Shown piece by piece: positions 44,648 through 59,785 of a DNA stretch of 64,000 nucleotides. A model generated the notes under the pieces. The model had not been told where the DNA came from, made no database searches, and saw only the letters and a list, made by a program, of their open reading frames with translations. Each line of letters opens with the position of its first letter. Within the stretch, counting starts at the first letter, position 1. The stretch comes from an uncultured bacterium (GTDB lineage Bacteria; UBP6; UBA1177), in the NCBI GenBank assembly GCA_905235605.1, contig CAJOMF010000014.1, positions 4,662 to 68,661 of the forward strand, in the 5' to 3' direction. A program made the translations under genes and the position numbers.

Positions 44648-44667
44648 AAATTAAGATCTGCAGCGGA

Positions 44668-45480
44668 TCAAAAATTTTTCAGAGATTCTTTAAAAGGTTC
44701 AAAAAAACGGGAGAGTTTTTTGCTCGCCGCAGATTTTGTCAATCCGTATTTTTGGGCGATTTCCGTAAAATCGGGTCTGTAATCATGATCTGCTGAATAA
44801 GCGTCCAAAAGTTCCTTATCTATGAAAGTGTAATTCACCAAAATCTCAGGGTTAAGACCATACAACAACAAGTTTTGGAGTGTGGCCCGATAAAGTCTGT
44901 GATAAACCTCTGTAAGATCAAACTCCATTTTCAGAAGTAAGACTGTAAGGATCTCGGAGAGCATCTGATCAGGATTCTTTTTCCACTCTTCCTGGATCTT
45001 CGGGATGAGTTTCTGCAGATCTTTTTTCATAAGGCTTTTTTCCAATGGATCGGTGTCGTTATCTTCCAAAAGAGTGTCCAAAATGGAGAAAGTTTCTCCT
45101 TCATCATTCGTCTTTTCGAGTTCGGTGGTGTTTGCATGTTCTTGAATTTCTTCGCCTTTTGCGGTGTTTATCGCCTTTTTCAATGAATTGAAAAGATATT
45201 TGCTGAAAGGAGCACCATTTTTGCGTGTTTCTGACTCGGGAAACCATTTTAGGCAATCTATGACCACTTTACGAACTTCATCAACATATTCCCCGTAAGC
45301 TGATTTTTTGATCTCTTTGACTTTCAGGTCTGAATTCTGGGAGGCTCCTTTTGGGGTTAATGCTGCCAGAACGATTTTCCATGTAAAGCCTTTTATCGCG
45401 ACTTCGATGTTTTCACCACGATCAAGGGCGTTTTGATATCCTTCGTAAAGTTCGTTAATCTTTTCAAAAATTTTTTCCAT
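44668..45480 (-). CDS. Hypothetical protein with sigma-70-like region 2.2 and region 4 (HTH) signatures
   Basis: …NGAPFSKYLFNSLKKAINTAKGEE… resembles sigma region 2.2 (FSTYxxxxIRxAI). C-terminal …FTEIAQKYGLTKSAASKKLSRF resembles the region-4 HTH. First gene on the low-GC island side. Weak by-eye assignment. Confidence 0.35.
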   Translation of the reverse strand: MEKIFEKINELYEGYQNALDRGENIEVAIKGFTWKIVLAALTPKGASQNSDLKVKEIKKSAYGEYVDEVRKVVIDCLKWFPESETRKNGAPFSKYLFNSLKKAINTAKGEEIQEHANTTELEKTNDEGETFSILDTLLEDNDTDPLEKSLMKKDLQKLIPKIQEEWKKNPDQMLSEILTVLLLKMEFDLTEVYHRLYRATLQNLLLYGLNPEILVNYTFIDKELLDAYSADHDYRPDFTEIAQKYGLTKSAASKKLSRFFEPFKESLKNF

Positions 45481-45482
45481 GG

Positions 45483-46103
45483 TCAGTCCTCGAACAATGC
45501 GTTAATTGTCTTTATTGCTCGTTCACTGCTTGAAGTCTCGATCATGTTGGTAAAGTTCTGCATAAGATAGAGCGGGGTGATGTCGTAGATCATAGGTGAA
45601 CCTTCTACGATTTCGTTGTTTTTGAATTCAACTTTGGAATAAACAATGTAGCCGACGGAACAATCGAAAAATTTCTCTGCAAACTGGCACACTGTGAAAA
45701 GCAAAAATGCCAATGGTTTCGGGCCATAAGTAGTGTCGGCATAGATTTCGGCATCATGCTCGAGTTCTTTGAGGATGGCTTTGAACATAAACTGAAAATT
45801 TGTTTTCGACATATCGAACGCGCTCGGAAGTATTTTATAAGTGATTTTTGCTCCGACTTTGTTGAAATGATCGAGTTCTTCCTCAAAAAGTTTCGCGTTG
45901 TCGCTTCCAGCGTTTTCACCCCCTTTTGTCTCGAGAAGGAGAACTTTGACATCATCATCCGCTTTAAGCGAGTTTGCAAGAGCAGCTGTCGCAGCAAACA
46001 GAATAGGTTCTTTAATCTCAAGCAGAGCGTTGCCGTCAACGGGATAGACGCATTTTTTTAAATTCTTTTTAAGCGGAAGTGTTACGAATAGGATTTTTTT
46101 CAT
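45483..46103 (-). CDS. Hypothetical protein (possible Rossmann-like fold; DTTYGP motif)
   Basis: 206 aa with a 2-nt gap to the downstream sigma-like gene, so an operon. No recognisable family. Preceded by island motif copy 1. Confidence 0.4.
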   Translation of the reverse strand: MKKILFVTLPLKKNLKKCVYPVDGNALLEIKEPILFAATAALANSLKADDDVKVLLLETKGGENAGSDNAKLFEEELDHFNKVGAKITYKILPSAFDMSKTNFQFMFKAILKELEHDAEIYADTTYGPKPLAFLLFTVCQFAEKFFDCSVGYIVYSKVEFKNNEIVEGSPMIYDITPLYLMQNFTNMIETSSSERAIKTINALFED

Positions 46104-46145
46104 TTTTTTTACCTCAATTATTCACAAAAAAACATTTCACACTGT

Positions 46146-46178
46146 ATATAATCGGTGAAAAACGGATAAGTTGACAAA
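46146..46178. promoter_or_regulatory. Island-specific conserved motif, copy 1 (TATAAtCGGTGAAAAA-N8-GTTGACAAAA)
   Basis: 43 nt 5' of the 206-aa gene start, on the template of minus-strand genes. Four more copies elsewhere in the island. Confidence 0.5.
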
Positions 46179-46209
46179 ATTTTTTCAAAAATTTCATAAT
46201 ATGCCTGTT

Positions 46210-47730
46210 TTATTGATGTTTTTCTTCACGTTTATCCATTTTCGCCAGCTCGAAAGTGAGATATATCAGGTAGATCTGAATCGCAAAAGCGTGCTTTTCA
46301 AAGAAATCGACCTCTTCGTTTTCGGAGCAGTAGAGAAAACTCATGAATTTTTTCAGATGAGCGCGTTCGTCTTCATCCAAAACATTATTATTATAGATAT
46401 TGGTTTTGTCGAGTTCCTCTTTGGGAAACTTGAGATAGCCGTCTTTATTGAAGACTTTACGCCATAATTCTTTATTGTTTGCCGCGTTGATGTTCAAAGG
46501 AGCCGTGATCTTTTTAAAATAATGCTCCAGAATTACGAGAAGTTTTTCCGCATTTTCTTTTTGAGCCGGATTTTTCTTAAGTTCACAGAGATATTGGTAA
46601 GAATCAAAAAAAGCGTAAAGGAGCAGCTTTTCCCAATACAATATTTGAAAATCGTTGAACATTTGGAAGTCGATATATTTGTCGAACAGTTTATAGACAG
46701 CGACATTCGCTCCCAAGTGGGTTATCCTGTTGCGTTCGGGATACAAAAACTTGTGATTCAGCGCACTTCTATTTGTAAAGCGGTCGTTTTTATTAGCTTT
46801 GATCGTTTGCCCGTCGAGCGAAGGATGTCCGTCCTGCCATTCCATTTCGGATTCTTCAAAGAATTTGCAGGTTATTTCCCTGCAGAATTTTTCATTTCCG
46901 GCAAAAAATGTCTGTGTAAAGCACTGATCCTTGAAACCGAAATCCAGTGTCTTGAGTGTTTTGAGATTAGTCAATACCTTTGTTATTTCTTCATTAGCTT
47001 CTGTATCGGTATAATTCGATTTTTTTCTGTTCGGGAAGATTTTAAGAATAGATTCCTGATGTTCCCTTACAAAATTCACCACATTTATGAGTTTTTCCCT
47101 CGGAACGGCTTCGTTTTCCGGCGGCATGAAATTAGCAAGGATGCGGAGAACGCCTTCATTCGCCTTGAAATAATTTCCTTCGAATTTCGTAAAATCGATA
47201 TCCGTGAATGGAGCTTTTTTTAAAAAACCGAGATCTTTGCTGATTTTATTAAGGATTTCACTCTGTTTTTCAGGCAGATACCAGGATTTTTCTTCCAAGG
47301 CCGAATCAAAAAGCTTCTTGATTTTCAATTTCCGTTCATCGGAAGCGAAAAATGTTCCGACTTCGCAGATGTCACGCAGCAGAAAGAAGAAAACTCCCTG
47401 CAGAAGCCGCATATCTTTTTCGAAAAGTTCAGGATCGATATTTTTGATCTTATCAGGTCTGGCAAGCGATATAACAGCAAAAGCCTTTTCCGCGATAGTT
47501 GTTCCAGCTATGATTCCGCTCGTTGCATTAAAAATATTTTGTTCGACTATGCTTTGGGGAGCAGAAAATACCTTTTTTAGAGAATCAATATTCAAGCCAC
47601 TTAAAGAGTTATAAAAAGCGAGAACCTTGTTCGGTTTTTCACTGAAACCACCGCGCAGGACCTCTTTGTTTTTCTTTATTTCTGCAATAATTTTATCAAG
47701 TTCTTCTTTTGATCTCATGGCATTCTCCAT
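46210..47730 (-). CDS. Hypothetical 506-aa protein (contains an Rx4H HEPN-like motif, RNRITH)
   Basis: Long ORF in the low-GC island with no recognisable catalytic family. The HEPN-like assignment is weak. Confidence 0.4.
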   Translation of the reverse strand: MENAMRSKEELDKIIAEIKKNKEVLRGGFSEKPNKVLAFYNSLSGLNIDSLKKVFSAPQSIVEQNIFNATSGIIAGTTIAEKAFAVISLARPDKIKNIDPELFEKDMRLLQGVFFFLLRDICEVGTFFASDERKLKIKKLFDSALEEKSWYLPEKQSEILNKISKDLGFLKKAPFTDIDFTKFEGNYFKANEGVLRILANFMPPENEAVPREKLINVVNFVREHQESILKIFPNRKKSNYTDTEANEEITKVLTNLKTLKTLDFGFKDQCFTQTFFAGNEKFCREITCKFFEESEMEWQDGHPSLDGQTIKANKNDRFTNRSALNHKFLYPERNRITHLGANVAVYKLFDKYIDFQMFNDFQILYWEKLLLYAFFDSYQYLCELKKNPAQKENAEKLLVILEHYFKKITAPLNINAANNKELWRKVFNKDGYLKFPKEELDKTNIYNNNVLDEDERAHLKKFMSFLYCSENEEVDFFEKHAFAIQIYLIYLTFELAKMDKREEKHQ

Positions 47731-47764
47731 TCAAAACAGCAATCCAATGATTCTGCTGATAAGA

Positions 47765-47797
47765 TATAAGCGGTGAAAAGAAGGGCGGTTGACAATT
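47765..47797. promoter_or_regulatory. Island-specific conserved motif, copy 2
   Basis: TATAAGCGGTGAAAAGAAGGGCGGTTGACAATT, 35 nt 5' of the 506-aa gene start. Confidence 0.5.
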
Positions 47798-48326
47798 ATT
47801 TTAACTTTTGTTGTTCTTTTTTTGTCGCATCATAGGCTTTTTTGACGCTTTTTTTGACTCCGTTGAAAGGGTTTAAAACGGAGTTTTTTGTCGAGTCTAC
47901 ATCCTCGTCATACCTTGCTGATGCGACCACATTATTTTCGAGATCGGTAAAAATAATGTAAAGAGTCCAGTTCCTCTGGTTGTCTTTGTCAATTTCCTCA
48001 TCAAAGTTTTTGAAAACAGTTCTATAATTCGTCAGGAAATTTTTCGAGTCAGTCTCAATTTTCTCCTTGTCTTTTTTATAACTGAGAACAAAACAGTGGA
48101 TCGGACTGTTCTGATAATAAGAACCAGTGTAATTGTCTCCTTCAAAATCACTGTTGATTTTTTGTCCGTTTATGCAACGCCTGTAATCATTGTTGCTTTG
48201 TCCATATGAGGTGGTGTATACATATGGAAAATCTGCAGTGGATTGCTTTTGCAGAGAAATCTTCTCAGCCCAAACGGCAGTAAAAACGAACAAAATGGCA
48301 AAAACAGCCAAAAATTTCTTTAACAT
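47796..48326 (-). CDS. Small secreted hypothetical protein
   Basis: Start placed at MLKKFLAVFAILFVFTAVWA (signal peptide). Asn/Tyr-rich. Lies between the 276-aa and 506-aa genes. Confidence 0.4.
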   Translation of the reverse strand: MLKKFLAVFAILFVFTAVWAEKISLQKQSTADFPYVYTTSYGQSNNDYRRCINGQKINSDFEGDNYTGSYYQNSPIHCFVLSYKKDKEKIETDSKNFLTNYRTVFKNFDEEIDKDNQRNWTLYIIFTDLENNVVASARYDEDVDSTKNSVLNPFNGVKKSVKKAYDATKKEQQKLK

Positions 48327-48403
48327 TTTTTCCTCCCTTAAGTTTAGATCCGTAATCAACCAAAATTCGAGTCAGAATAGTTAAAAATAGAGATTTGTAA
48401 ATA

Positions 48404-49234
48404 TTATGCGGCTTTGTCGAAAGCCAATATTTTATTGATCAATTTCGACAGTGATTCTTCTTTGAGTAATTTGCCGGTGAACTTTTTTATTGTTTTATGG
48501 TACTGACGTATATCGTATATGACCTCATCTTGCTGCTCTTTGTTTCTGAACCTCAATATCATAAAACGGATGTGTCTCTGGTATGCTTTGAAATCGGAAT
48601 TCACGAAATCATAAAATGTCTTTTCAGGGAAGCGTGTATGGTAAAATATTGCAAATTCGCTTCTTGCTTCCGTCAGATCGGAATAAGACGGCTTGTCACT
48701 GTGTTGGATATCTACTATTTCGTTGTTTATTTTTCTTTGGTTTGATTGAATGAGATCGTAACCTGGGAATTTTTTTGTTTTATCGGAACTCCAGTCTCTG
48801 TCGATGGGTTTTGACGGATCAAAAAACTCTCCCGAAAGGTCGTTGATGTAAAATTCCAGATCTTCGATCCCGATCTGCTTTATTTTGTGCTTTTTCTCCA
48901 TAAACTTCCGGCCTTCAAATGTGATTTCATAACTTTCGCCGTTTTCTTTCAGCAGCTCGTTCTTTATCAGGAAATTGAATTGCATATTCAGAAAACTGTT
49001 GCTGTCTATGCCCAGGAAAGAGCATATTTTCGAATATTCGGTAATACCGTTGTCGACAAGTTTCAGGATCACCATGCTGAAACGGTCGATTTCTCTTTCA
49101 GTTTCAAAAGCGACTTTCTGTTTGCATTTCCAGAACGGGAGATCAATTTCGAAAATGTCTTCCAGCTGGAATCCTTCCGTTGAGTATTCGTCCTTGTAAA
49201 GTTCCCAGATCCTCTGTTTAAGTTCTCTATCCAT
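48404..49234 (-). CDS. Hypothetical 276-aa protein (possible wHTH), translationally coupled to the upstream helicase
   Basis: 8-nt overlap with the helicase stop (…ATGGATAG…). Central segment resembles a winged helix. Confidence 0.45.
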   Translation of the reverse strand: MDRELKQRIWELYKDEYSTEGFQLEDIFEIDLPFWKCKQKVAFETEREIDRFSMVILKLVDNGITEYSKICSFLGIDSNSFLNMQFNFLIKNELLKENGESYEITFEGRKFMEKKHKIKQIGIEDLEFYINDLSGEFFDPSKPIDRDWSSDKTKKFPGYDLIQSNQRKINNEIVDIQHSDKPSYSDLTEARSEFAIFYHTRFPEKTFYDFVNSDFKAYQRHIRFMILRFRNKEQQDEVIYDIRQYHKTIKKFTGKLLKEESLSKLINKILAFDKAA

Positions 49235-52214
49235 TGAAAACCTCCTCCAAACTGTTGAATATAAGACCTTCTTTCTGAAGTTTTTCTGCTATTTTCTGCA
49301 ATTTGAATTCCGGAAAATCCTCCGACGGGGTGAATGTCGCCCTGTTCAGGAGGTAATCGCTGTCTCCGACTACGAACAGCAGGCGTTTCGCTCTCGAAAA
49401 TGCGACGTTGATCCTTCGGTAATCGGCTAAAAATCCGATGTTGTCCTGCCCCTGAGCACTTCTGACGATGTCGTAGATTATGATATCGCGTTCGGCTCCC
49501 TGAAATTTGTCGACAGTCTTTATTTCTATGAGGGGCTCACCCTTTTCCGTTACGAAATTACGGTATTTTTTCAGATTGATCTTCTGCTTCAGAAGCTCCA
49601 CCTGACCTTTGTAGGCGGCTATAACACCAATAGTGAGCGGCTTCTCTTTTTTCGTATTGGACGGATAAAGCGAGTTGAGTTTTTCAAGCAGTTCTTTTAT
49701 GGCTTCGACATTGCACTGGTTCTGGCGGAAGAATTTGTTGCCGTTGTCGTAAGGCTGAGGTCTTTGGGAAGTGCTCAAAAACGCTATGGATGTCGGTTTT
49801 TTCAAATTCAGACCATGTGCCTTGTCGGCATCGAAGCCGGGAATATCAGGGTTTTTGAGTTTGCCGTCGTAAAAGAATTCCGAGATCAGGCTCCCGATCT
49901 GTTTAGGCATCCGGTACTGGATATCGAGCATTCTTATGAAACGCTCGTTCGGAGTTCCCTGAAATCCTTTTTTTATTTTTTCGAAAAGACTGACTCCGTA
50001 GGTTTTGTCTATATCGAGACCGTCGTCTTCCATTTTTTCTCTGACATTCTTTCTTACAGCTTCTTCTCTTGTGATAACTGGCGGAAGCTGCCTGTCATCT
50101 CCTATCATTATGATGTTTTTCCCCATGCTCAAAGGGACAAGCGATTCTGCAGGGGTGGCTTTGCTGCTTTCATCCATTATTACATAGTCGAATTCAAAAT
50201 GTATATTCCGATATTTGCTGCTTGCGATATGGATGCATGTCGCTCCGACAACATTCGTGTTGTTAAGCATCGCGCTCAGGAGATCTATCTTTTCGCTTCC
50301 GTTGTCCAGCAGTGCTTTGTTTTTGAGCAGACCGTTGCCTATAAATGCAAGCCAATCTTTATTTATCTCAAGCAATATCCCGTTTTGGTCTTTGTCCGCG
50401 AACTCTTTTGAAAAATTTTCCGATGATGTTTTTGCCGTGTCGTTTATGTATTTTTCCAGCTTTTTTTCGAAGCAGTGCTGTTTCATCAGAATCGAAACAT
50501 TGTCCTTTTCCAAAGCGTTGTCACTTGCCAGCCGCATGAATGTCACATCTTTTTCTCCAGCAAGTTTTTCCAGGACGTTGTCCACTGCCAGATTCGACTG
50601 GGATGTCAGCAGGATCCTGACGTTTTTATTCTGTTTGATCAATTGGAGTATGATCTCAAGGATAACTGTCGTCTTGCCTGTTCCGGGAGGGCCTTGAATG
50701 AGGTATATCGGTTTGTAGTTGATCGCATCGACAACAGCTTCCAATTGAGATTCATCGTTTTCCAGCTTAGGATTGAAAAGATCATTCAGAATGTCGGCAT
50801 GATCCGATGGATGGATTCTGCAAGGTATTTCGCTTTCAGGCGTGGTTACTATGTCACACAGTTGTTTATTCACAATATCGCGCTGTTGAAATTGCTGACA
50901 GGCCTCTATCTGCTTTTTAAACTGGCTCGTTTTTTGATTGGTGTCTTCTGTAATGGTCCATGATTCAGGGATTTCTTCAATATTCCGTTTTGGATCTTTT
51001 ATCGTTATAGTTCCATCTTCCGGGCCGTAGTCGAGGATCTCACCGATCAGCGGAAGCGGAGGTTTTTTGCTCTGTAAAAACACTTTCGTTTGTTCATTTT
51101 TCAGTTCTTTGATCTTGCCCCAGTTGATCCCAGTATAGTCCTTTAAATAGAAGATCAAATCACCGTTGTCGCTTTCTTCTACCTTGTCATACTTTACTGC
51201 AAAGGCATTTTCTTCGATGTAGCGTTTTTCCGACTGAGGCAGTTCCTTCCAAATCTCCAATTCATTTTGTTGAGTCCGGTTCAATTCAGACAGCCTGTTG
51301 CTTTTCACTGCTGAGCGGAAATGGCGGCTCAATGGTGGCAGTTTTTTCAGCAGATCTATCAGATCTGCATACTTAGAAAAACGTTCGGTGCGTTCCTCTG
51401 CCAATGACCCAGACAGTATCAGATCGATGGTCTCCTTATGGTCTTCAGTCGCATAATTCTCTCTGATAAAATCCTCGAAAGTCTTTATGAGAGAGTAGAT
51501 ATCATCCTGAAAATTTATCCGGCCGTTTCTGCTAGAAAGATATCTTTTTGCTCCAGCAGAAAGATAATTTTGATCAAGCAGTCCTTCATCGGCGAAGATG
51601 TCGAAAAGTTTTGCGAAAAGGAGTTCTGCACGTCCCTCATCGTCAATTTTGATGTATTTTGGTGATATTATGAATTTCTCTGAATTCTCGTTTTTCTTGA
51701 ACCAATCGAGGCCGAGAGCAATATTGGTAACATCGGTGATATCAACTTTTTCGGCGGATTCTTCAAGCATGTTGTCTCCGAAATTCTCATAAACTATGTA
51801 ATAAAAATGCTGATTTTCATCGTATCCTGTATCCATGATCTTTACAAATCCAGGGATCTCTTTGTCAATCAAAGGCTTTATTTCGTAATCAAGGATCCTT
51901 TTTATCTTTCTGGCGTTTGTTTCCGTTTCTTTTATCATCAGAATGTCAAAGATTTCGCCTTCACGGTTTTCGCACCCTTCGAAAAAACGGAGGTTGGAAC
52001 TTAATTCTTTCGAAGCTGAGATAACGGTGTAATTTCCTATCGTTTCTGTGCCCGATATGTCATTTGCTGCACTCTCTTCCTCTTCTTCAAAGACCTCTTC
52101 GGAATCAAAATCCATGCTTAATGATTCATAAGAAAAGAAACGGTCGGATCTCCCCGAATAGGTGAGTTCTTCGATCGGTTCTCCGAGATAGAATAAATTC
52201 GAGTTTTTTTTCAT
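49227..52214 (-). CDS. Upf1-like SF1B helicase (DNA2/NAM7, AAA_11/AAA_12-type) with roughly 480-aa uncharacterised N-terminal domain
   Basis: Walker A GPPGTGKTT. Motif II VIMDESSKA. Motif III/IV region. Motif VI KFQGAERDIIIYDIVRS. Start placed at MKKNSNLF (ATG 52214) after GGAGG. N-terminal half has no clear family but shows a kinase-like beta3-K / hinge pattern. Confidence 0.7.
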   Translation of the reverse strand: MKKNSNLFYLGEPIEELTYSGRSDRFFSYESLSMDFDSEEVFEEEEESAANDISGTETIGNYTVISASKELSSNLRFFEGCENREGEIFDILMIKETETNARKIKRILDYEIKPLIDKEIPGFVKIMDTGYDENQHFYYIVYENFGDNMLEESAEKVDITDVTNIALGLDWFKKNENSEKFIISPKYIKIDDEGRAELLFAKLFDIFADEGLLDQNYLSAGAKRYLSSRNGRINFQDDIYSLIKTFEDFIRENYATEDHKETIDLILSGSLAEERTERFSKYADLIDLLKKLPPLSRHFRSAVKSNRLSELNRTQQNELEIWKELPQSEKRYIEENAFAVKYDKVEESDNGDLIFYLKDYTGINWGKIKELKNEQTKVFLQSKKPPLPLIGEILDYGPEDGTITIKDPKRNIEEIPESWTITEDTNQKTSQFKKQIEACQQFQQRDIVNKQLCDIVTTPESEIPCRIHPSDHADILNDLFNPKLENDESQLEAVVDAINYKPIYLIQGPPGTGKTTVILEIILQLIKQNKNVRILLTSQSNLAVDNVLEKLAGEKDVTFMRLASDNALEKDNVSILMKQHCFEKKLEKYINDTAKTSSENFSKEFADKDQNGILLEINKDWLAFIGNGLLKNKALLDNGSEKIDLLSAMLNNTNVVGATCIHIASSKYRNIHFEFDYVIMDESSKATPAESLVPLSMGKNIIMIGDDRQLPPVITREEAVRKNVREKMEDDGLDIDKTYGVSLFEKIKKGFQGTPNERFIRMLDIQYRMPKQIGSLISEFFYDGKLKNPDIPGFDADKAHGLNLKKPTSIAFLSTSQRPQPYDNGNKFFRQNQCNVEAIKELLEKLNSLYPSNTKKEKPLTIGVIAAYKGQVELLKQKINLKKYRNFVTEKGEPLIEIKTVDKFQGAERDIIIYDIVRSAQGQDNIGFLADYRRINVAFSRAKRLLFVVGDSDYLLNRATFTPSEDFPEFKLQKIAEKLQKEGLIFNSLEEVFNG

Positions 52215-52251
52215 TTTTTCCTCCTTGAGAAGCGTTACATCCAACACCACT

Positions 52252-52284
52252 TATAAGCGGTGAAAAATCCCTGAGTTGACAAAA
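52252..52284. promoter_or_regulatory. Island-specific conserved motif, copy 3
   Basis: TATAAGCGGTGAAAAATCCCTGAGTTGACAAAA, 38 nt 5' of the helicase start. Confidence 0.5.
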
Positions 52285-52314
52285 AATCTGTGCAAAAAGC
52301 TTAAGGCTGTTAAA

Positions 52315-54048
52315 TTATTGGTTGTTTCTCACACACACAACTTTGAGTTTATAGTCGAGAATGTAGGGAAAATCTGCCGAATGTGCTCCTCCGCGATTGT
52401 ATGCGTCAATAAGCATCGTCATGTGGCCGACTCTGGCGTTCATAAAGTCAACGCCCCATGCTTCTTTAGTGTTTTCCGGGTCGAGAGTTGATGACCAGAA
52501 GGCCTCAATTGAGCCGGTTTTGCTGAATTTGGGATCGTTTATTTCTTCCAAAAGTTGTTTTTGGGTTTCTTCTCCGAGCTCATAGTATTCCGTTTTTGCC
52601 GTCAGAGTGTTGATTTTACCGCACCCGTTGCAGTCTTTGCTCCAGCATTTTTCATTAAGGCACTGTCTGTTTTCGCTGATTCTGCACCTGCCTCCCAATT
52701 TGGTTTTGTCGCAGTTGTGAATAAGCGTGCGCAATTCGTCTATGTTTGGCAGGTGCCAGTCGGAATTGTTGTTTTCTGTAAGGTTTGAGCAGTAATTCTG
52801 TGCTTCTTCCCATGTCATCGGATCGGCTGCAACGGACGACCACTTCAAAGACTTGGGATTTGGCAATGATTTCACAGGTTTCCTTTTAGGTTTAACCTTG
52901 AAATCGTCATCTTTTCTGTCGCGGACGCAGATCACATCTGTATCGTGGTTTATCACCGGCACATAAAGAGCGAGGTCGAGCACCGGACTGTATGTCCAGC
53001 CGAACCGGTCTGGCCTTGCATGAGAGCCGTCCCAGATACTGTTTGCCGTGAGAGCCCTTATCCCGTGAGTTCTTCTTGCAGCAAGGAAAAAACTTTCATC
53101 TGCATCTTTTTCCGGCTTTTTATATCTGCCGTGCAGCGATTTTAATTCTTCTATTGTCGGCTGGCGCCAGTCGCTGAAACCTCCTTCTCTTAAAGATTCA
53201 CAGTATGCATAGGCATCATGCACCCCGAAAGTATTGTTCACGCAGTCACGATACAGGTATCCGCAGGGAATTTCCCGTTCTTCGTTTTCTTCGCAGATCC
53301 AGCTTTCATCGCAAAGTCCTTTTGCTGCGGTGTACATGATGTGCCGATCTGCAAGCAGCGCTGCTGTGTAGTTTTTCTTTTTCGACACCGTGCTTTCAGA
53401 CCACTGCAGTTTGTCAGGATCGATGGTTTTTTCTATTTCAATTTTTTTCTCTGCGGCAAAGTCTTTCGGGTAAGATTCCCTGACGCACGCAACATTGCAG
53501 AGATCCCGCATACACGGGCGGCACGGATGCCAGTCAGGATCGGCAAGGCAGCTTTTTCCGCTAACCATCCCGTAACCGTTAAACCAGTTCTGGTCATTTT
53601 CCTTTTCGTTGAAAGACCAGAAACAGCTGTCGTAAAGGTAAAATCCGTTGACATAAGTCCGCAATGTGTCAGCCTCTTTTTCTGTGTAGAATATGCCGCT
53701 TCCCTCCTTGAATACTGAACAATCTTTCATTATTGATTTCAATTCCTCGGTTGTCGGCGGTCTCCAGTCGGAAAAACCGTCTTCGCGCAGCTCTTCGCAG
53801 TATTCTGCGATGGTGTCGTAATACATCGGTCCGGGAGAGGGCTGCGACCACATAAGATTTGGAGCGACATCGGTTTTTACAGTGGACTGCTTCTCACGGC
53901 GTATGGCAGGATCGGGATCATTTTCAGTGTCTTGAAGCAGAATTATGTCTTCGTTTTTTGGTTTCTGAACCTCTTCTTTTGAAGAACAGCCGGACATCAA
54001 GCAGAGTGTAATCATGCAAAGGTGTAAGATCATTGAGATATTTTTCAT
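52315..54048 (-). CDS. Secreted lipoprotein with three DUF1566 / Fib_succ_major domains
   Basis: Lipobox LMSGCSS. Three copies of the YCEELREDGFSDWRPPTTEELKSI / YCESLREGGFSDWRQPTIEELKSL / YCSNLTENNNSDWHLPNIDELRTL signature. Confidence 0.7.
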   Translation of the reverse strand: MKNISMILHLCMITLCLMSGCSSKEEVQKPKNEDIILLQDTENDPDPAIRREKQSTVKTDVAPNLMWSQPSPGPMYYDTIAEYCEELREDGFSDWRPPTTEELKSIMKDCSVFKEGSGIFYTEKEADTLRTYVNGFYLYDSCFWSFNEKENDQNWFNGYGMVSGKSCLADPDWHPCRPCMRDLCNVACVRESYPKDFAAEKKIEIEKTIDPDKLQWSESTVSKKKNYTAALLADRHIMYTAAKGLCDESWICEENEEREIPCGYLYRDCVNNTFGVHDAYAYCESLREGGFSDWRQPTIEELKSLHGRYKKPEKDADESFFLAARRTHGIRALTANSIWDGSHARPDRFGWTYSPVLDLALYVPVINHDTDVICVRDRKDDDFKVKPKRKPVKSLPNPKSLKWSSVAADPMTWEEAQNYCSNLTENNNSDWHLPNIDELRTLIHNCDKTKLGGRCRISENRQCLNEKCWSKDCNGCGKINTLTAKTEYYELGEETQKQLLEEINDPKFSKTGSIEAFWSSTLDPENTKEAWGVDFMNARVGHMTMLIDAYNRGGAHSADFPYILDYKLKVVCVRNNQ

Positions 54049-54073
54049 CGTTTCCCTCCGTTATGTGGTTGTT

Positions 54074-54364
54074 TTAGGCAACGCAAAGAAGACGGTATTC
54101 TTCGTGCCATGTTCTGTCGTCTTCAAAAGCGATAATGTTTCTGAGTTTTCGTCTGAATTCGCGCTGAGGTTTGTCACTTTTGTAGAAGGAATAGTGCGTA
54201 AGGTGGTAACAGCCGCATTTTGAGCAGTAATATTTCCTTTTCGGGATCTCGTTCGCGTGTCCGCATTTTTTTGCTCCGTTGAGAGCGTTTCCCGCTTCTC
54301 TTTCAGTGTAGCAGATCTTTCCCGTGCTTTTGCATCTCAAATCTCTTCCGAAATCGTCTTTCAT
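54074..54364 (-). CDS. Small zinc-ribbon protein (CxxxxxxC … CSKCGC)
   Basis: 96 aa, basic, two Cys clusters. GGAGGG RBS. Island motif copy 4 lies 44 nt upstream. Confidence 0.4.
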   Translation of the reverse strand: MKDDFGRDLRCKSTGKICYTEREAGNALNGAKKCGHANEIPKRKYYCSKCGCYHLTHYSFYKSDKPQREFRRKLRNIIAFEDDRTWHEEYRLLCVA

Positions 54365-54407
54365 CTTTTCCCTCCATTTGTCTTGTCAATCAAACGCCTA
54401 CACGACA

Positions 54408-54440
54408 TGTAAGGGGTGGAAAATGAGAGAGTTGACAAAA
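54408..54440. promoter_or_regulatory. Island-specific conserved motif, copy 4 (degenerate 5' half)
   Basis: TGTAAGGGGTGGAAAATGAGAGAGTTGACAAAA. Confidence 0.45.
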
Positions 54441-54454
54441 TTTGCCTCCTTTTT

Positions 54455-55012
54455 TCATACTAAAGTGTTAAAAAGCCTGTCCCCAGTGTCTGGTCCTATG
54501 CCGTTTTTTTGAGTCAAAACTTTTTGACCGACAAAAGAATTATTTGAAACTCTGACTGTAAAAACTTCATAATCGTTGAATTTTTTAATAGATTTCTCGC
54601 ACAAAACATTCGTGACAATTTTAATTTTATCTTTTGGAATCTCAGATTTTTCGATTGCACTCAAAATGCCCTTTCCTGAATTGATAACTGCATCTACGAA
54701 AATAACGTCTTTGTTGAAAAGCAGCAGTTTGTTTTTCTCAAAAAAATCCTTGTCTGTTTTGTCATCGTAAAATGTTACGGCACAATCCAGACAATCTGCA
54801 AAACCTAAAGCCATTGGAATCCCAGCCCTTATTAAAGCTATGATTATGGAATCTTTTGTGAAGTGATTTTTAAAATATTTCCCTAATGCAAATCCCAAAT
54901 CAATATGAGCATGTCTCAATTCAGCTCCAGTTTTTTGAGAGTCACTTTTGCAAATACTGATTGCGTCAACAATTTTATCTGTTGAAAAATTTTCGCTTAA
55001 AACATACAGCAT
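54455..55012 (-). CDS. Uracil phosphoribosyltransferase-like PRTase (Upp family)
   Basis: PRPP-binding loop VIFVDAVINSGKG. C-terminal GIGPDTGDRLFNT matches the Upp tail (GLGDAGDRLFGT). GAGGAG RBS. 2-nt gap to the upstream gene. Confidence 0.65.
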   Translation of the reverse strand: MLYVLSENFSTDKIVDAISICKSDSQKTGAELRHAHIDLGFALGKYFKNHFTKDSIIIALIRAGIPMALGFADCLDCAVTFYDDKTDKDFFEKNKLLLFNKDVIFVDAVINSGKGILSAIEKSEIPKDKIKIVTNVLCEKSIKKFNDYEVFTVRVSNNSFVGQKVLTQKNGIGPDTGDRLFNTLV

Positions 55013-55014
55013 TA

Positions 55015-56220
55015 CTATTCTCCTCTGATTCCTTTATATTGATTTTCATTCCCTGCAAACTGTCGTATTGCGGTGTTTCTATGATTATCAATGTATGTTT
55101 GTACAGCAGGTCTTATTTTCCCTGGAGCCCAGAGGTAGCCGCTTGACATTTCAAGCATATAAATGTCGCACATGCTGTCTCCGGCACTAAAAACTTCGTA
55201 ATTTTGTAACAGAAGCAATTCTACGACATAACCTTTGACAAAATCCGAGATAAGATTCTTTGAGTTTTGGTTGAGATCGTTGCCTATTACCATTTCAAAT
55301 AAATGATGCTCTGCATTGAATTGATTCCAAAATTTATATATTCCAGAGGTGAGTCCAAACACGTGATACCCAGAAGTTTTTAAAGATTTTAGTTTTTCGA
55401 TGACGATATTATTGGCATGAAATAAAGAGGTCTTAGGGTGTTTTTTGAAGTTCTTGTATAATTCCTTTTGTCGCCAAAACTGATATACAGAATAGATATC
55501 GTCTGTAAAAATGGTTTTTAATATTGCAGGATCGGTGTTGTTGAGTTCAAAAAACGGAATAGTCGAATCCTCTTTAATGATGGTCTTGTCACAATCAAAT
55601 ATGGCGATTTTTTTAAATTTGTTTGGGTCGGAGCGTGTGTTCTCAATTTGAGAAACAATTCTTTGAGCTATGTTCATAGGTGTTAATTCAGGGAAACAAT
55701 CCATGTATTCATGCAAAAACTTCATGTCCAGATCAAAATCAGCATCCAGAACAATGAATTCTTTACGAGATTTGAAGCATATATCTCTAAGTTCCGAAAT
55801 CTCTTTTAATTGCCAATCTTTTATTTGTTGTTCCGTAAGATTTCTAAATTTTTGATTTTTCTGGCTTAAATTTATTCTTTCTTTTGCAATAGATGGATTG
55901 ACGTGCAGGTACAAAAATATGTCGTACAACTTACAATCGTTTTCTGTGCAAACAATTTTAAAACTTTGAGAATCAGGAAAACAATAGTGACCATCGACAA
56001 TAAAATCCTGTTGATTTTTTAATTCTTCTGCGAAAATAGTTCTTGTCCTTTTTTGAAGTTCGGAATCTAATTCCTGAAAATTTTTGCAATATATCCTGTT
56101 AGATATGATGTTTAATTGCTCAGATCCTTTCTTGTGGCAGTATTGCGGAAAATGACGAAGAAATTTTTCTATAAACGTGTCTTTCCCGGCACAGGAAATT
56201 CCATATACAGCAATCTTCAT
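55015..56220 (-). CDS. Fusion of a P-loop nucleoside/nucleotide kinase-like domain (Udk/NRK-like) and a HAD-superfamily phosphatase domain
   Basis: N-terminal KIAVYGISCAGKDT P-loop. C-terminal HAD motif I IAIFDCDKTII (DxDxT) and motif IV GDSMCD. ATGA overlap with the radical SAM gene. Confidence 0.6.
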   Translation of the reverse strand: MKIAVYGISCAGKDTFIEKFLRHFPQYCHKKGSEQLNIISNRIYCKNFQELDSELQKRTRTIFAEELKNQQDFIVDGHYCFPDSQSFKIVCTENDCKLYDIFLYLHVNPSIAKERINLSQKNQKFRNLTEQQIKDWQLKEISELRDICFKSRKEFIVLDADFDLDMKFLHEYMDCFPELTPMNIAQRIVSQIENTRSDPNKFKKIAIFDCDKTIIKEDSTIPFFELNNTDPAILKTIFTDDIYSVYQFWRQKELYKNFKKHPKTSLFHANNIVIEKLKSLKTSGYHVFGLTSGIYKFWNQFNAEHHLFEMVIGNDLNQNSKNLISDFVKGYVVELLLLQNYEVFSAGDSMCDIYMLEMSSGYLWAPGKIRPAVQTYIDNHRNTAIRQFAGNENQYKGIRGE

Positions 56221-57128
56221 TTTATATCCCCTATATATTTGTCAAAATAGCATTCCCCGTCATTAAGCTGCTTAAATCGTTGCATGGATTTTTCTACCGA
56301 TATTAACGAATCTGACGCCTTGCCTATTTCATATTCAGGTAGTCCGATGAATCTGCCGCAAGGGTATATTTTATTGTTCGCATAAAAAATGTTTGTTTTT
56401 CCGACCCCGCATAACTGACCATACATCGTGCAGTCGTATCGTTTGGGTTTGCGCAACTGTCTCAGTAACAGTTTTTTTTGAGAGGCCTCCTCTATAAATT
56501 TAATAAAATCGCCTTTGGATATGTATAAATCCGGAGATTTTTCATCCACAAGTCTGGAAAAGCAGACTTCGGAAAAATTCTGCTCAAAAAATCTAAGAGT
56601 TTCTGTTTCGCTGCTCAGTGTTCCTTTGTGAACAGTTGCATTTACGGAAGGTGTTTCCTGAAAGATTTTTTTATATAGATTTATAGAGTTCATTACAATG
56701 TCAAAGGAGCCTTTTCCGTAGGCAAGTGTTCTGCATGAATCATGTAGATTTTTATCGCCGTCTATGGAAAAACATAGTTTTATTAAATCCCGATTGTTGT
56801 GGAACCACCGGATAATATTTTCTGTGGCAGAGATCCCGTTGGTTATGGTGTAAAAAGACAGCAGTTTATGTTTGGCGATCAGCCTGGTATACGAGACAGC
56901 TTCTTGTATTAAATCAAACCGGATTAACGGTTCCCCTGCGCCGACAAGTCCGATTTTGAAATTTATCTTGTTCTCTTCTGAATAAGCAACAATGTTGGAT
57001 ATAATATTGAGCAGAACTTCTGTAGAAATGTCATTGCAAGACTGCTTTGAAACATGCTTGTCAAAGTGGCAGTATCTGCAGCGAAGTTGGCATTTGCCTG
57101 TTATGGAAATACAAGCTCTGTCAATCAT
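56217..57128 (-). CDS. Radical SAM enzyme, MoaA/viperin-like (CxxxCxxC near N-terminus, GAGEPL)
   Basis: ISITGKCQLRCRYC (CX3CX2C) resembles the MoaA N-terminus (ISVTDRCNLRCTYC). …NKINFKIGLVGAGEPL… resembles viperin/MoaA (EKINFSGGEPF). C-terminal Cys pair. Start at MIDRAC (ATG 57128) after GAGG. Confidence 0.7.
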   Translation of the reverse strand: MIDRACISITGKCQLRCRYCHFDKHVSKQSCNDISTEVLLNIISNIVAYSEENKINFKIGLVGAGEPLIRFDLIQEAVSYTRLIAKHKLLSFYTITNGISATENIIRWFHNNRDLIKLCFSIDGDKNLHDSCRTLAYGKGSFDIVMNSINLYKKIFQETPSVNATVHKGTLSSETETLRFFEQNFSEVCFSRLVDEKSPDLYISKGDFIKFIEEASQKKLLLRQLRKPKRYDCTMYGQLCGVGKTNIFYANNKIYPCGRFIGLPEYEIGKASDSLISVEKSMQRFKQLNDGECYFDKYIGDIK

Positions 57129-57129
57129 T

Positions 57130-58389
57130 TCAGACCTCATTGTTTTCAGTTTTTGCAAATTTTTTATTAATTTCAGGATCGTTGATTTGGAGGGCATAAT
57201 CTTTGGCGGTTTTGTTTTCGTAACGACTGTGAATATTTAAGTCTGTTTTATCAACAAGATAGTTTGCAACATCAGAACACTTTCTAATGCAAGCTTTTAT
57301 TAAAGGCGTAAAACCGTTGGAATCCTGTTGGTTGCAGCAAGCTCCCTGTTCAACAAGATATTTTACTATCTCAAGTTCTCCATGCCATGCAGCGATCATC
57401 AAAGCAGTGTTTCCGTAATTATCGCCTTGCGAACCTTTGTCTATGTCAGCCCCGTTTTGCAATAGGATTTTTATAAATTCTAAATTTTTTATTTGAACCG
57501 CATGGCTAATTGGTGGAAGTCTGTATTTTGCATCGTCGCATTTATTTATATCTGTTCCCGGCAGGGAAATAAGGTATTCGAGCATTTTTTTGTCTCTATT
57601 TCTGATTGCTTGAATGCAAGGGGTATATCCCGTTTTGGGGTCAGTATGATTTATGTCGGGATTTCCCTTTTTTACTTTCTCTGCATCCAAAATATTTCCG
57701 TTTTTAACAGCATTGTAAAAATTGCCGGTGTCTCTGGGGCTAAAATCTTCATCCGATAGAGAGAATTCTCTTTCGTAATCCTCAAGATTTAACACTTTGA
57801 AATTTAGAGTTGATGCAGCTTTCAAAGGGAAATAAACATCTTCAGCAAGAAGAAAAACGGTTAGTGATGAGTCTTTTTTGGCTTCACGCAGAGCAGCATT
57901 TATGATTTTATTGTCGTTGAAATTCTCATTTTTATTAACAACATCTTCGAGAACTAAAAATCTTTTTTCATCTTTTTTCTGCAAATCAACAAAAGACTTC
58001 ATAGCTAGCCAAGCCTGTTGCTTTCGTTTTCCACGATCTTTTTGGTAATTCATTTCATCAAGAACTGTTTCGGTAATGCAGATATAGTTAATGGCTTTTT
58101 TTCCATTCATTTCTTCCAAAATTCTTGGTCTGCGGCACAATATGGATGAATCCACGATCAGCATGATTTTTTTTGATTTTTTCAATCCTAACAATTCGTC
58201 AATGCTCACACAAAATGTTTGAGCTATTTGAATTAGCTGGTCGGTTGTCGGAAGACTTTTCGCTTGTTCCCAATTCGACACTGTAGGTCTTGAAACATTG
58301 AGCTTGTTTGCAAACTCTTCTTGTTTTAGCCCTTTGGAATTTCTTAACTCTTCAATGTTTTTAGCAATTTCGTCTTTTGAGTAATTCAT
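57130..58389 (-). CDS. XRE-family HTH + PIN-like domain + ankyrin-repeat protein
   Basis: HTH_XRE (LKQEEFANKLNVSRPTVSNWEQ). PIN-like acidic motifs (KIMLIVDSSIL…ITETVLDEM). At least two ankyrin repeats (GNTALMIAAWHGELEIVKYLVEQGA…). AGGAG RBS. Confidence 0.6.
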   Translation of the reverse strand: MNYSKDEIAKNIEELRNSKGLKQEEFANKLNVSRPTVSNWEQAKSLPTTDQLIQIAQTFCVSIDELLGLKKSKKIMLIVDSSILCRRPRILEEMNGKKAINYICITETVLDEMNYQKDRGKRKQQAWLAMKSFVDLQKKDEKRFLVLEDVVNKNENFNDNKIINAALREAKKDSSLTVFLLAEDVYFPLKAASTLNFKVLNLEDYEREFSLSDEDFSPRDTGNFYNAVKNGNILDAEKVKKGNPDINHTDPKTGYTPCIQAIRNRDKKMLEYLISLPGTDINKCDDAKYRLPPISHAVQIKNLEFIKILLQNGADIDKGSQGDNYGNTALMIAAWHGELEIVKYLVEQGACCNQQDSNGFTPLIKACIRKCSDVANYLVDKTDLNIHSRYENKTAKDYALQINDPEINKKFAKTENNEV

Positions 58390-58590
58390 TTTTTTCTCCT
58401 TTCAAGTGGTTCTGTTTCTCAAAAAAACAATCAACGAAAAGTATTTTAAGCAAGAATTTTTAATGTCAATATCAATTACTTGTATTTTGACCAATGTTAA
58501 ATCTTCTTACATTTGTAAAAAATCCTGACATCGCAATAAATAGAACAATGTATCCTTTTTTCACTTATCAAAGAACCTTTCTGCTCTACC

Positions 58591-58624
58591 TATAAGCGTC
58601 AAAAACTTTCTGAGTTGACAAATA
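58591..58624. promoter_or_regulatory. Island-specific conserved motif, copy 5
   Basis: TATAAGCGTCAAAAACTTTCTGAGTTGACAAATA, about 200 nt 5' of the XRE-PIN-ANK gene. Confidence 0.45.
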
Positions 58625-58695
58625 AGAGAGATTTTTTGAGAAAAAATTTAGCTGATGAAGGAAAAGATCAATATATTAAGTGGTTTGCTTTGAGC

Positions 58696-59553
58696 TTAGT
58701 ACAACTTTTCCTTGTGTTCCAATTCGAGTTTTTTATCGTCGATGGAAGCCTTGAGGATTTCGTAGTATTTCTGGCGTGTAAATATGTTTGCTTTGTATTG
58801 TGCGTGCTGTTTGCCGTCCAGTTTGCTCTCAACTGCATGCCGTTTCAGAATCTCTTCGACAAAACGGTTCGGGATCGCGTAGTCGATAAGCAGACAGTCG
58901 ATGAGATCGACTTTGCTCCTGCCGTTCAGGAAAGCGCAGGTTTTGAGAACATGGACGATTCTTTTCCAGCGGGAGTCACTTACATAGAACTCGAAGCACT
59001 TTCTTCTGATTTCTGAAATGACACTTTTGGCTTCTTCGCTCAGTTCGACCCTGTCGATTACCGGCTGCCACTCTTTTACTTCCTTTATTGTAAGCAGTGC
59101 GGCTTTTTGTTCTTTATCGGGATGCGGGATTGTCTCGAAGCTGGGACTGTTTACGAAGTTAAAAAAATTGTCGTCATCCGCAATCGGTTTTACCTCGACA
59201 GTAATGACCCAATCTTCATTATTTTCCGCAGCTTTATAGGGATCTGCTTCCGACGAGTTTTCCATACGGAATAAAGAATCAATGCCGTATTCTGACGACC
59301 GGGGGGCAAACTGATCATGGCTGTAATAATCTTTAAACGCACTTTGGATAGAGAACTGAATAAGTTTTTTGTCGTTGTCGGATCTTCCGGAAAGAATAAT
59401 GTCTTCCGCAGCAACAGCCGAAAGCAGCGAAAGGTTGATTACTTCCTCTCTGCCTCGCAGATTACGGTTTAAAAAGGCAAGAACAGTTTCAATACGGTCA
59501 CGCATTTCCTTGCCGGAAAAAATCTTTTTTTCTCCCGAATTGTTGTCGCTCAT
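58696..59553 (-). CDS. Hypothetical protein (island edge, adjacent to tRNA-Leu)
   Basis: ATG 59553 after GAGG. No recognisable family. A partial motif-like TTTTTGACAATTTT lies at 59603-59616 upstream. Confidence 0.4.
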   Translation of the reverse strand: MSDNNSGEKKIFSGKEMRDRIETVLAFLNRNLRGREEVINLSLLSAVAAEDIILSGRSDNDKKLIQFSIQSAFKDYYSHDQFAPRSSEYGIDSLFRMENSSEADPYKAAENNEDWVITVEVKPIADDDNFFNFVNSPSFETIPHPDKEQKAALLTIKEVKEWQPVIDRVELSEEAKSVISEIRRKCFEFYVSDSRWKRIVHVLKTCAFLNGRSKVDLIDCLLIDYAIPNRFVEEILKRHAVESKLDGKQHAQYKANIFTRQKYYEILKASIDDKKLELEHKEKLY

Positions 59554-59680
59554 CTTCAACCTCGTAAAAAGTGATTAAAAAACTGCGTAATTTTAAAGAA
59601 GAAGAGATTTTTGACAATTTTTTGCGGGAAACGGTTTTTCAGCTTTTCTATTTGCTGCAAAGCTTGGATTGTTCTAAAAA

Positions 59681-59768
59681 TGGTGCCGGAGACCGGGCTC
59701 GAACCGGTACAGGAGGTTATCCCGAGGGATTTTAAGTCCCTTGCGTCTACCAATTCCGCCACTCCGGC
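59681..59768 (-). tRNA. tRNA-Leu (anticodon UAA), CCA encoded
   Basis: Minus-strand read: GCCGGAGTGGCGGAATTGGTAGACGC…AGGGACTTAAAATCCCT…GGTTCGAGCCCGGTCTCCGGCACCA. Long variable arm. Anticodon loop CTTAAAA. Confidence 0.85.
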
Positions 59769-59785
59769 GGTTATAAGTTTGAAAA

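Follow-up and report, generated by a model that had tools for sequence, protein, structure and literature searches.

A variable gene island with a CARF–sigma-like gene pair and a recurrent promoter-like element in an uncultured bacterium of the UBP6 lineage

In the genome of an uncultured bacterium (GTDB lineage Bacteria; UBP6; UBA1177; GenBank assembly GCA_905235605.1), a variable gene island is located on contig CAJOMF010000014.1 between conserved flanking genes. The stretch that was analysed, referred to as the window, comprises 64,000 nucleotides (nt), corresponding to positions 4,662 to 68,661 of the forward strand; all coordinates are positions in this window, and the minus strand is the coding strand of the island. 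The island encodes a putative sigma-70-family protein (g1), a stand-alone CARF protein (g2) directly upstream of it, and a series of cargo genes, and each of its five operons is preceded by a copy of the same 36-nt element. An earlier reading of the sequence alone, made without database searches, had recorded a sigma-like gene and five copies of a private motif; what had gone unnoticed is that the copies amount to one promoter-like element per operon, and that the motif travels with a conserved gene pair made up of the sigma-like gene and the CARF gene beside it.

Relatives were collected by a one-genome-per-species scan with the flanking Clp ATPase, which led to rumen metagenome-assembled genomes, and by a metagenome scan with an alignment of the CARF protein, which yielded 80 loci, including 68 CARF genes followed by at least 900 nt. 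Related genomes and loci are designated by L numbers, L003 being the closest other species, a genome from buffalo abomasum whose Clp protein is 92% identical to that of the window. Domains were sought in Pfam, NCBIfam, PADLOC and PHROGs, and tRNAs with ARAGORN and Rfam. The island, the gene pair and the five elements, the latter scored with a position weight matrix (PWM), are as follows.

44650..58697, minus strand: variable island, 14,048 bp, without counterpart in L003
44668..45480, minus strand: g1, 270 amino acids (aa), sigma-like by family profiles against the PDB, short form without region 3
45483..46103, minus strand: g2, 206 aa, stand-alone CARF protein 2 nt upstream of g1 (PADLOC CARF2, 1.7e-72)
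46144..46179, minus strand: element P5, upstream of g2-g1 in an autoregulatory position, 42.9 bits, start codon 43 nt downstream
47762..47797, minus strand: element P4, upstream of g3, 41.0 bits; an equivalent precedes the g3 homologue in L083
52249..52284, minus strand: element P3, upstream of g6-g5(-g4), 49.1 bits; an equivalent precedes MkoA in L083 and L099
54405..54440, minus strand: element P2, upstream of g8-g7, 45.0 bits; equivalents in L083 and L101
58588..58623, minus strand: element P1, 200 nt upstream of g12, 41.5 bits

On the coding strand, the element reads TTTTGTCAAC-N8-TTTTCACCGCTTATA. All five copies are intergenic, and there is one ahead of each operon of the minus strand, namely g2-g1, g3, g6-g5-g4, g8-g7 and g12-g11-g10-g9. 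The count of five given by the sequence-only reading is borne out by the PWM: over both strands of the window (128 kb), the five sites score 41-49 bits and the next best site 9.6, the motif being absent from the rest of the window. In its layout, the element consists of an xxAAC box resembling a -35 box, a T-rich spacer, and a CGCTTATA box resembling a -10 box about 40 nt before the start codon; written as GTCAAC-N16-GCTTATA, it has a spacing from TTGTCA to TATA of about 21 nt. Promoters of extracytoplasmic function (ECF) sigma factors typically combine an AAC-type -35 box with a CGT-type -10 box, and the motif resembles them in layout. Its arrangement is that of a promoter for an alternative sigma factor. 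A scan of the island for the sigma-70 consensus and for terminators returned counts equal to those in shuffled sequence.

The distribution of the motif was assessed with the PWM on both strands of 98 loci (3.8 Mb). The motif is confined to loci that carry the CARF–sigma pair, where it scores at least 31.8 bits, compared with a background maximum of 8.4, and none was found in the island-less relatives L003, L004, L009 and L010. In the metagenome loci, 17 matches share the strand of CARF and 1 lies on the other. In a separate count of 26 sites in 11 loci, the next start codon in the same orientation follows the TTATA box at a median distance of 41 nt. The CARF–sigma operon is headed by the motif in every locus of the close clade, an equivalent of P5 being kept upstream of CARF in L083, L085, L088, L099, L101 and L102. 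The same motif heads a varied cargo: a complete Mokosh system (kinase-helicase and phospholipase D (PLD) proteins) in L083 and L099, an operon of NrdG, NrdD, metallophosphatase, deoxynucleoside kinase and type III methyltransferase genes in L085 and L101, a MoxR/DUF2201 operon in L091, g8-like and g13-like genes in L088, and DUF2357 clusters in related islands. Sequence identity between the sigma-like protein of the window and that of L085 or L088 is 34%, yet the motif is the same. Distant clades retain a (T/C)GTCAAC box upstream of the CARF–sigma operon. In Treponema, no motif was detected by the PWM; by eye, one GTCAAC...TATA site with a different spacing is present upstream of the operon.

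The leader between P1 and g12 (58390-58587) is AT-rich and, at about 200 nt, unusually long; for P2 to P5 the distance to the start codon is about 35-45 nt. A promoter belonging to the captured cassette itself, or an operator for the helix-turn-helix (HTH) domain of g12, may be located in this leader.

The sigma-like character of g1 is apparent at the level of its family, which is small: an exhaustive profile search recovered 136 relatives among 1.84 billion representatives, and a word-indexed search returned 16 clusters. Two family alignments, A2 and the stricter A4 (only matches with E below about 1e-15 used), served for profile searches of the PDB, in which SigA, RpoD, RpoS and SigF were matched at E values of 2.7e-11 (A2) and 1e-8 (A4), with the alignment spanning SigA regions 2.2-3, region 2 being the part of a sigma factor that binds the core enzyme and recognises the -10 box. 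With a narrow profile of 16 sequences, the PDB search returned nothing, and the sigma link became visible only after the family had been widened. Among 108 relatives scanned with Pfam, Sigma70_r3 was matched in 11, Sigma70_r4 in 4, Sigma70_r4_2 in 2, and the ECF and r2 models in 1 each. The alignment shows a sigma-like layout in which the longer homologues carry an insert that g1 does not have; this region-3 insert is missing in g1 and in relatives of 265-270 aa, and most of the family (293-370 aa) has it. ECF (group 4) sigma factors have a two-domain sigma2-sigma4 architecture without region 3; as most of the family possesses a region 3 matching Sigma70_r3, the family is probably not ECF by descent, and g1 would be ECF-like in form only. 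At the C-terminus of g1, where a sigma-70 factor has the region 4 HTH for recognition of the -35 box, the only match is Myb_DNA-bind_8 (2.7e-5, below cutoff), and the AlphaFold2 (AF2) model predicts helices with confidence scores (pLDDT) of 70-81. On the strength of the family profiles, g1 very probably belongs to the sigma-70 family.

The assignment of g2 to the Rossmann-like CARF fold is supported by an AF2 model with a pLDDT of 93, with which a Foldseek search of the PDB returned CARF proteins as its top 28 matches (Csx1-Crn2, Csm6, Cam1, Can2, Csa3 and ring nucleases), the strong matches all being CARF domains that bind cyclic tetra-adenylate (cA4) or cyclic hexa-adenylate (cA6). In the D-x-T-x-G loop, which follows the core strand, D123, T125 and G127 are invariant among 42 homologues, and T8 is nearly so; these residues are presumably ligand contacts.

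The two genes are tightly associated. In 67 of the 68 CARF loci, a sigma-like open reading frame (ORF) starts between -37 and +29 nt from the CARF stop codon, and all long contigs have a g1 homologue as the next gene after the 206-aa CARF gene. In Treponema sp. OMZ 788 (CP051199.1) and in a 970-kb contig, the proteins encoded downstream of CARF match the g1 profile with 99.6-99.7% probability. The CARF and sigma-like proteins are the only ones common to all motif-bearing islands, and g1 is accordingly the most parsimonious candidate for a factor recognising the motif. The motif is likely to be a g1-dependent promoter.

The association with type III CRISPR-Cas or another source of cyclic oligoadenylates that is expected of CARF proteins was not seen: at the loci, no cas gene domains occur among the listed neighbours of the pair. 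L134 carries a CRISPR-like array of 12 repeats at 28-754, the sole locus of 86 with such an array within 10 kb of the pair. A phage origin was considered and set aside, as no CARF homologue was found in the viral contigs of IMG/VR. In clades of 44-52% identity (L113-L116, L121-L125, L133-L148), a conserved ORF precedes CARF in the same operon, about 170 nt upstream; its product ends in ...KKHSLRN.YN.DP.YE.YKN..Y.DYY.A and may be a third component in those lineages.

The remaining genes of the island form its cargo.

46210..47730, minus strand: g3, 506 aa, no recognisable family; homologues in L083 (76% identical) and L103 (64%)
47796..48359, minus strand: g4, 187 aa, hydrophobic N-terminus, no family; homologues in L083 (47%) and L103 (49%)
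48404..49234, minus strand: g5, 276 aa, winged HTH (wHTH) like the N-terminal part only of MkoB (HTH_45 1.2e-6; PADLOC MkoB 1e-6)
49227..52250, minus strand: g6, MkoA-like superfamily 1B (SF1B, Upf1-type) helicase (PADLOC MkoA 4e-137; AAA_11 3e-39; AAA_12 5e-45)
52315..54048, minus strand: g7, three Lcl_C/DUF1566 domains (Lcl_C 3e-32 over 3 stretches); 87% identical in L083 and L101
54074..54364, minus strand: g8, 96 aa, four-Cys zinc ribbon, recurrent first gene after the motif
54455..55012, minus strand: g9, phosphoribosyltransferase like uracil phosphoribosyltransferase (Pfam UPRTase 5e-11)
55015..56220, minus strand: g10, fusion of P-loop kinase (AAA_17, 1.8e-9) and HAD phosphatase (HAD 2.4e-3; HAD-IB 3.8e-5)
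56217..57197, minus strand: g11, radical S-adenosylmethionine (SAM)/SPASM-type enzyme (Radical_SAM 4e-10; PapB-like rSAM/SPASM 3e-32, below cutoff)
57130..58389, minus strand: g12, HTH(XRE)-PIN-ankyrin protein, first gene of the cassette (HTH_3 6e-14; PIN_4 7e-8; Ank_2 6e-44)

The domain scans recovered the SF1B helicase (AAA_11/AAA_12), the nucleotide-modification cassette (UPRTase-like, kinase-HAD and radical-SAM genes), the triple-DUF1566 protein and the ORFs of no recognisable family, all of which the sequence-only reading had listed. The g6-g5 module has the features of Mokosh in part. The probable start of g6 is at 52214, and the metagenome gene call gives 995 aa; no Pkinase match was obtained in g6 with Pfam at E<=0.01, while the L083 homologue has a kinase domain. 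The match of g5 to MkoB covers profile positions 5-132 of 610, and g5 has neither a PLDc match nor the HxKx4D motif, which is present in the 445-aa MkoB of L083. Without a PLD nuclease or a detectable kinase, the g6-g5 module is therefore an incomplete or variant Mokosh. As for g3, it has no match in any of the domain databases scanned. A hidden Markov model of g8 homologues found them in 14 close-clade loci, usually directly downstream of the motif. Together, g3, g4 and g8 belong to no known family, yet they recur in related islands.

A separate observation concerns a recurrent four-gene cargo upstream of CARF–sigma in L088 (1-9231), L091 (1-9602) and L102 (48-9869), which comprises an MkoA-like helicase of 1120-1130 aa, a protein of about 690 aa resembling the MkoB N-terminus, a PDC-M26A match of about 970-1010 aa, and a DUF2357 protein of about 1200 aa. 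This cargo has the appearance of a larger system related to Mokosh, with another protein in place of the PLD nuclease.

The four genes g12-g11-g10-g9 are distinguished by their occurrence elsewhere. Their order is conserved in the unrelated contigs L093/94, L095/96 and L098, including a Kiritimatiellae genome, and these free-standing copies lie near toxin-antitoxin and nuclease genes; the motif is absent from them. In the island, they form the block of lowest GC, with a GC content at third codon positions (GC3) of 0.29-0.34. The ankyrin part of g12 matches PADLOC PDC-M72A at 1.3e-19. The true start of g11 is probably internal, at 57128-57140, homologues elsewhere having 298-307 aa, and an identification of g11 as a viperin was rejected, since the pVip match reaches only 2.4e-9 compared with 3e-32 for PapB-type SPASM maturases. 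Overall, g9-g12 looks like an independent candidate defence cassette that was captured by the island.

The limits of the island follow from a comparison with L003. By blastn, the segments 39802-44649 and 58698-60026 of the window are matched in L003 with 88-90% nucleotide identity, and L003 is contiguous across them apart from 2 nt. The gene order there is Clp-LPP20-MORN, convergent with a homologue of g13 (86% identity), followed by tRNA-Leu, tRNA-Cys and tRNA-Gly, with 2 nt between the MORN gene and the g13 homologue. Because the MORN and g13 flanks are nearly contiguous in L003, the variable segment is 44650-58697; the insertion or deletion and its borders are practically certain. The right flank and the left junction contain the following features.

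58696..59559, minus strand: g13, RavA/MoxR-like protein with AAA_lid_8 only (6.8e-14), a flanking core gene
59681..59973, minus strand: tRNA-Leu(taa), tRNA-Cys(gca) and tRNA-Gly(gcc), found by ARAGORN and Rfam, in the same order in L003
44655..44669, no strand assigned: hairpin resembling a terminator, located where the MORN gene and g1 converge, between their stop codons; from a consensus scan only

The comparison that the sequence-only reading had proposed, namely presence or absence between the MORN gene and tRNA-Leu in related genomes, thus gave a clear result, the island being missing from L003. Its left border at 44650 proved exact. Its right border, placed at 59680, has to be moved to 58697, as g13 is conserved next to the tRNAs in L003; the tRNA-Leu/Cys/Gly cluster is where it was said to be, but the island does not abut it, because g13 intervenes. 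With its flank-like GC (0.438), 86% identity in L003 and adjacency to the tRNAs there, g13 puts the island about 1 kb from tRNA-Leu. The Walker A region of g13 is unrecognisable. At the usual position of the RavA/MoxR Walker A loop, the protein reads ...ILSGRSDNDKK... and looks like a degenerate ATPase. It is a core gene in the window and L003, while its L088 homologue lies within a motif-headed operon with a g8-like gene; related entries are found at L088 11350-12279 and at L103 4875-6575 and 8619-9854. The hairpin at the left junction falls in island-specific DNA.

As previously described, the minus strand carries every ORF between 44668 and 59559. The AT-richness of the island is confirmed in general, with GC of 0.392 for 44650-58697 compared with 0.454 for the left flank (1-44647), and both GC and GC3 below the flanks, but it is not uniform. 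The island is a mosaic in which 44.6-49.2 kb has a GC of 0.380, 49.2-54.0 kb is close to the flanks at 0.437, and 54.0-58.7 kb has 0.357; by bins, 45-49 kb and 54-59 kb lie at 0.34-0.41 and 49-54 kb at 0.41-0.475, against a window average of about 0.45. The suggested test of GC and codon statistics separates the island from the other 35 genes, with mean per-gene GC of 0.384 and 0.457 (Mann-Whitney p=5e-5) and mean GC3 of 0.413 and 0.516 (p=3e-4), respectively.

No integrase, recombinase or transposase domain was detected in the island in the four domain databases, and the search of the borders for direct repeats and for att sites derived from a tRNA gave only chance matches of 10-13 nt, in agreement with the sequence-only reading; a degenerate repeat of the tRNA-Leu 3' end, which it had suggested might lie at the left border, was not found there. 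The Rfam scan returned the three tRNAs and nothing else, and the window contains no CRISPR array. L010 was discarded as an empty-site comparison, since the MORN gene is kept there but its neighbourhood is different (PPDK, M48 peptidase), which makes it uninformative. The island fills the gap between two convergent core-gene stop codons, a position that, without terminal repeats, fits an exchange by homologous recombination through the flanks. Arrival or exchange by homologous recombination, rather than site-specific integration, is most likely. Presence and absence between close relatives, atypical composition and defence-type content fit the proposal of a recombination-acquired defence island.

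Elsewhere in the window, a second low-GC patch (33000-36800, 0.37-0.41) may be another small accessory or defence region. It contains a Fic/HTH gene (35764-36783) and a RhuM-like gene (33764-34603, GC 0.383), and a gene for a DUF4143 ATPase is found nearby at 38269-39657. Intergenic tandem repeats with units of 32-33 nt in 2.4-2.5 copies, located at 60078-60155 and 62932-63036, flank the DUF1566 and DUF4143 genes that lie beyond the tRNA cluster on the right.

Taken together, the preferred interpretation, held with somewhat better than even confidence, is that of a modular anti-phage defence island transcribed from the promoters of its own sigma factor, with a CARF sensor presumed to exert the gating. 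In the proposed mechanism, g1, as a divergent sigma-70-family protein of two domains, would direct RNA polymerase to P1-P5, its own promoter included, and g2, which would be translationally coupled to g1, would bind a cyclic oligoadenylate (cOA) or a related nucleotide made during infection and thereupon release or activate g1. A single signal could in this way switch on the whole island, and new defence cassettes would enter the regulon by acquiring the promoter element. The gating step considered separately, in which the CARF protein controls the sigma factor through a ligand, has perhaps slightly less than an even chance of being correct. The most specific formulation, in which CARF acts as a nucleotide-gated anti-sigma or co-sigma factor of a new sigma-70 family and an infection signal, cyclic oligoadenylate or a related molecule produced elsewhere in the cell, switches on interchangeable operons through a portable 36-nt promoter, is more tentative still and is offered as a speculation.

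Several considerations weigh against this interpretation. Promoter activity of the motif and its recognition by g1 are predictions, and the element could also hold an operator, because it is longer than a minimal promoter. Taken singly, g1 has no match among the Pfam sigma models. Neither Cas10 nor any other cOA synthase was seen at the loci examined, and just one of 86 loci has a CRISPR array within 10 kb. Instead of being the switch, the CARF protein could act as a ring nuclease or be one of the co-regulated components. The cargo may be non-functional at least in part, since the Mokosh-like module is without a nuclease, and L003 may have lost the pair, because L085 and L088 carry it at or next to the same locus.

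Among the alternatives, the possibility that the 36-nt element serves chiefly as operator of some regulator other than g1, such as the g8-like zinc ribbon or a host factor, with transcription by the housekeeping sigma factor and some other role for g1, is unlikely, although it has points in its favour beyond the missing Pfam match of g1: the element is long and its bases are conserved throughout, and g8-like genes occur in nearly all close-clade islands, usually first after the motif. However, motif-headed cargo in L085/86/87 has no g8-like gene within 20 kb (the locus being cut off upstream), distant clades keep the GTCAAC box before the CARF–sigma operon where no g8 homologue was found, and the homology of g1 to the sigma family is significant. 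The island also shows no enrichment of the sigma-70 consensus, and a TTGTCA-TATA spacing of about 21 nt is unfit for a housekeeping promoter.

The other two alternatives concern the origin of the segment. It could be ancestral and vertically inherited, deleted in L003, its low GC reflecting fast-evolving defence genes instead of import. This history is as improbable as the operator explanation, even though the pair adjoins the same MORN-LPP20-Clp genes in L085 and lies one gene away from them in L088, with 86%-identical Clp proteins, for the sigma-like proteins of species whose Clp proteins are 86% identical share only 34% identity, the CARF and g7 of L083 are 96% and 87% identical to those of the window although their chromosomal surroundings differ, the cargo is wholly different between islands, and the g9-g12 cassette, with its GC3 of 0.29-0.34, recurs independently in unrelated contigs including Kiritimatiellae. 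Vertical descent bears on history alone and does not conflict with the regulatory model. An integrative element, old or degraded, that was aimed at the tRNA-Leu/Cys/Gly cluster and has since lost its integrase was among the origins envisaged by the sequence-only reading and would account for a tRNA cluster within 1 kb, low GC, accessory content and co-oriented genes. It is nevertheless highly improbable: the g13 stop codon marks the end of the segment, and g13 is 86% conserved in L003, between MORN and the tRNAs; the borders bear no tRNA fragment or 3'-end repeat and no direct repeats; no integrase, recombinase or transposase domain was found in the four domain databases; and related islands lie away from tRNAs, that of L083 by ABC and MFS transporter genes and that of L088 on the other side of g13. 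A recombination-acquired island with its own sigma-like factor remains the preferred account.

The interest of the locus resides in its regulatory architecture, the island by itself being ordinary. CARF and SAVED effectors mostly destroy nucleic acids or membranes, and few transcriptional outputs of cyclic oligoadenylates are recorded (Csa3, CalpL/T/S). A description of a CARF and sigma-70-family pair was not found in the literature searched. If the proposed mechanism is true, the pair would provide a direct, protease-free link from a second messenger to a sigma factor, with a regulon legible from sequence. The locus offers a module of two genes, sensor and sigma factor, with candidate target promoters that are legible in the sequence and open to comparison across dozens of islands of differing cargo, and it makes testable the gating of a sigma factor by a nucleotide messenger without proteolysis, the existence of silent inducible islands, and the recruitment of cassettes through a promoter "socket". 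Candidate members of the defence regulon are thereby pointed out, namely g3, g4, g8 and the cassette of HTH-PIN-ankyrin, radical-SAM, kinase-HAD and phosphoribosyltransferase genes.

With regard to known systems, parts of the cargo have recognisable counterparts. Mokosh type I consists of MkoA, a COG1112/Upf1-like helicase with a Ser/Thr kinase domain, and MkoB, a PLD-family nuclease, and its defence is reported to require the PLD active site (bioRxiv 10.1101/2022.05.11.491447). The island resembles it in the Upf1-type helicase core of g6 (MkoA, 4e-137) and the wHTH of g5, which corresponds to the N-terminal part of MkoB, and differs from it in having no PLD nuclease and no detected Ser/Thr kinase in g6, whereas L083 has the complete pair. 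The cassette recalls prokaryotic viperins with their kinases, in that a radical-SAM enzyme stands beside a nucleotide kinase in a defence context, although the pVip match is weak (2.4e-9), g11 is closer to SPASM-type peptide or protein maturases, and a HAD phosphatase, a UPRTase-like enzyme and an HTH-PIN-ankyrin protein are further parts of the cassette.

The regulatory part can be compared with three systems. In Myxococcus xanthus, the ECF sigma factor DdvS and its anti-sigma factor DdvA control a CBASS-CRISPR-Cas defence island (PMC11506125). As would be the case here, an island-encoded alternative sigma factor drives several defence operons and a co-encoded partner restrains it; however, DdvA is a transmembrane anti-sigma factor that has a CHAT-like domain in the periplasm and a zinc-bound bundle in the cytoplasm, whereas the island has a soluble stand-alone CARF protein and no membrane anti-sigma factor, and its sigma-like protein represents a separate, very divergent family of 136 relatives that singly gives no Pfam sigma match. 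The CalpL-CalpT-CalpS system of type III CRISPR comprises a SAVED-Lon protease, an anti-sigma factor and an ECF sigma factor (summarised in PMC11229360 and PMC12751052), and it shares with the arrangement proposed here the coupling of a cyclic-oligoadenylate sensor to sigma release in a transcriptional response to infection. In Calp, a SAVED sensor fused to a Lon protease cleaves a separate anti-sigma factor, while the present loci have no protease and no anti-sigma gene, only CARF and the sigma-like protein, are not linked to CRISPR, and display a candidate regulon legible from a conserved motif. Csa3, which is among the Foldseek matches of g2, is a CARF-wHTH transcription factor that binds cA4 and controls the transcription of defence genes (PDB 6w11; PMC4012209); it fuses CARF to a DNA-binding domain, whereas g2 has none and is paired with a separate sigma-family protein. 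The CARF–sigma-like pair is thus set apart from DdvS/DdvA, CalpL/T/S and Csa3 by a free CARF sensor, the lack of a protease or membrane anti-sigma factor, a distinct sigma family and a regulon that is legible from the sequence.

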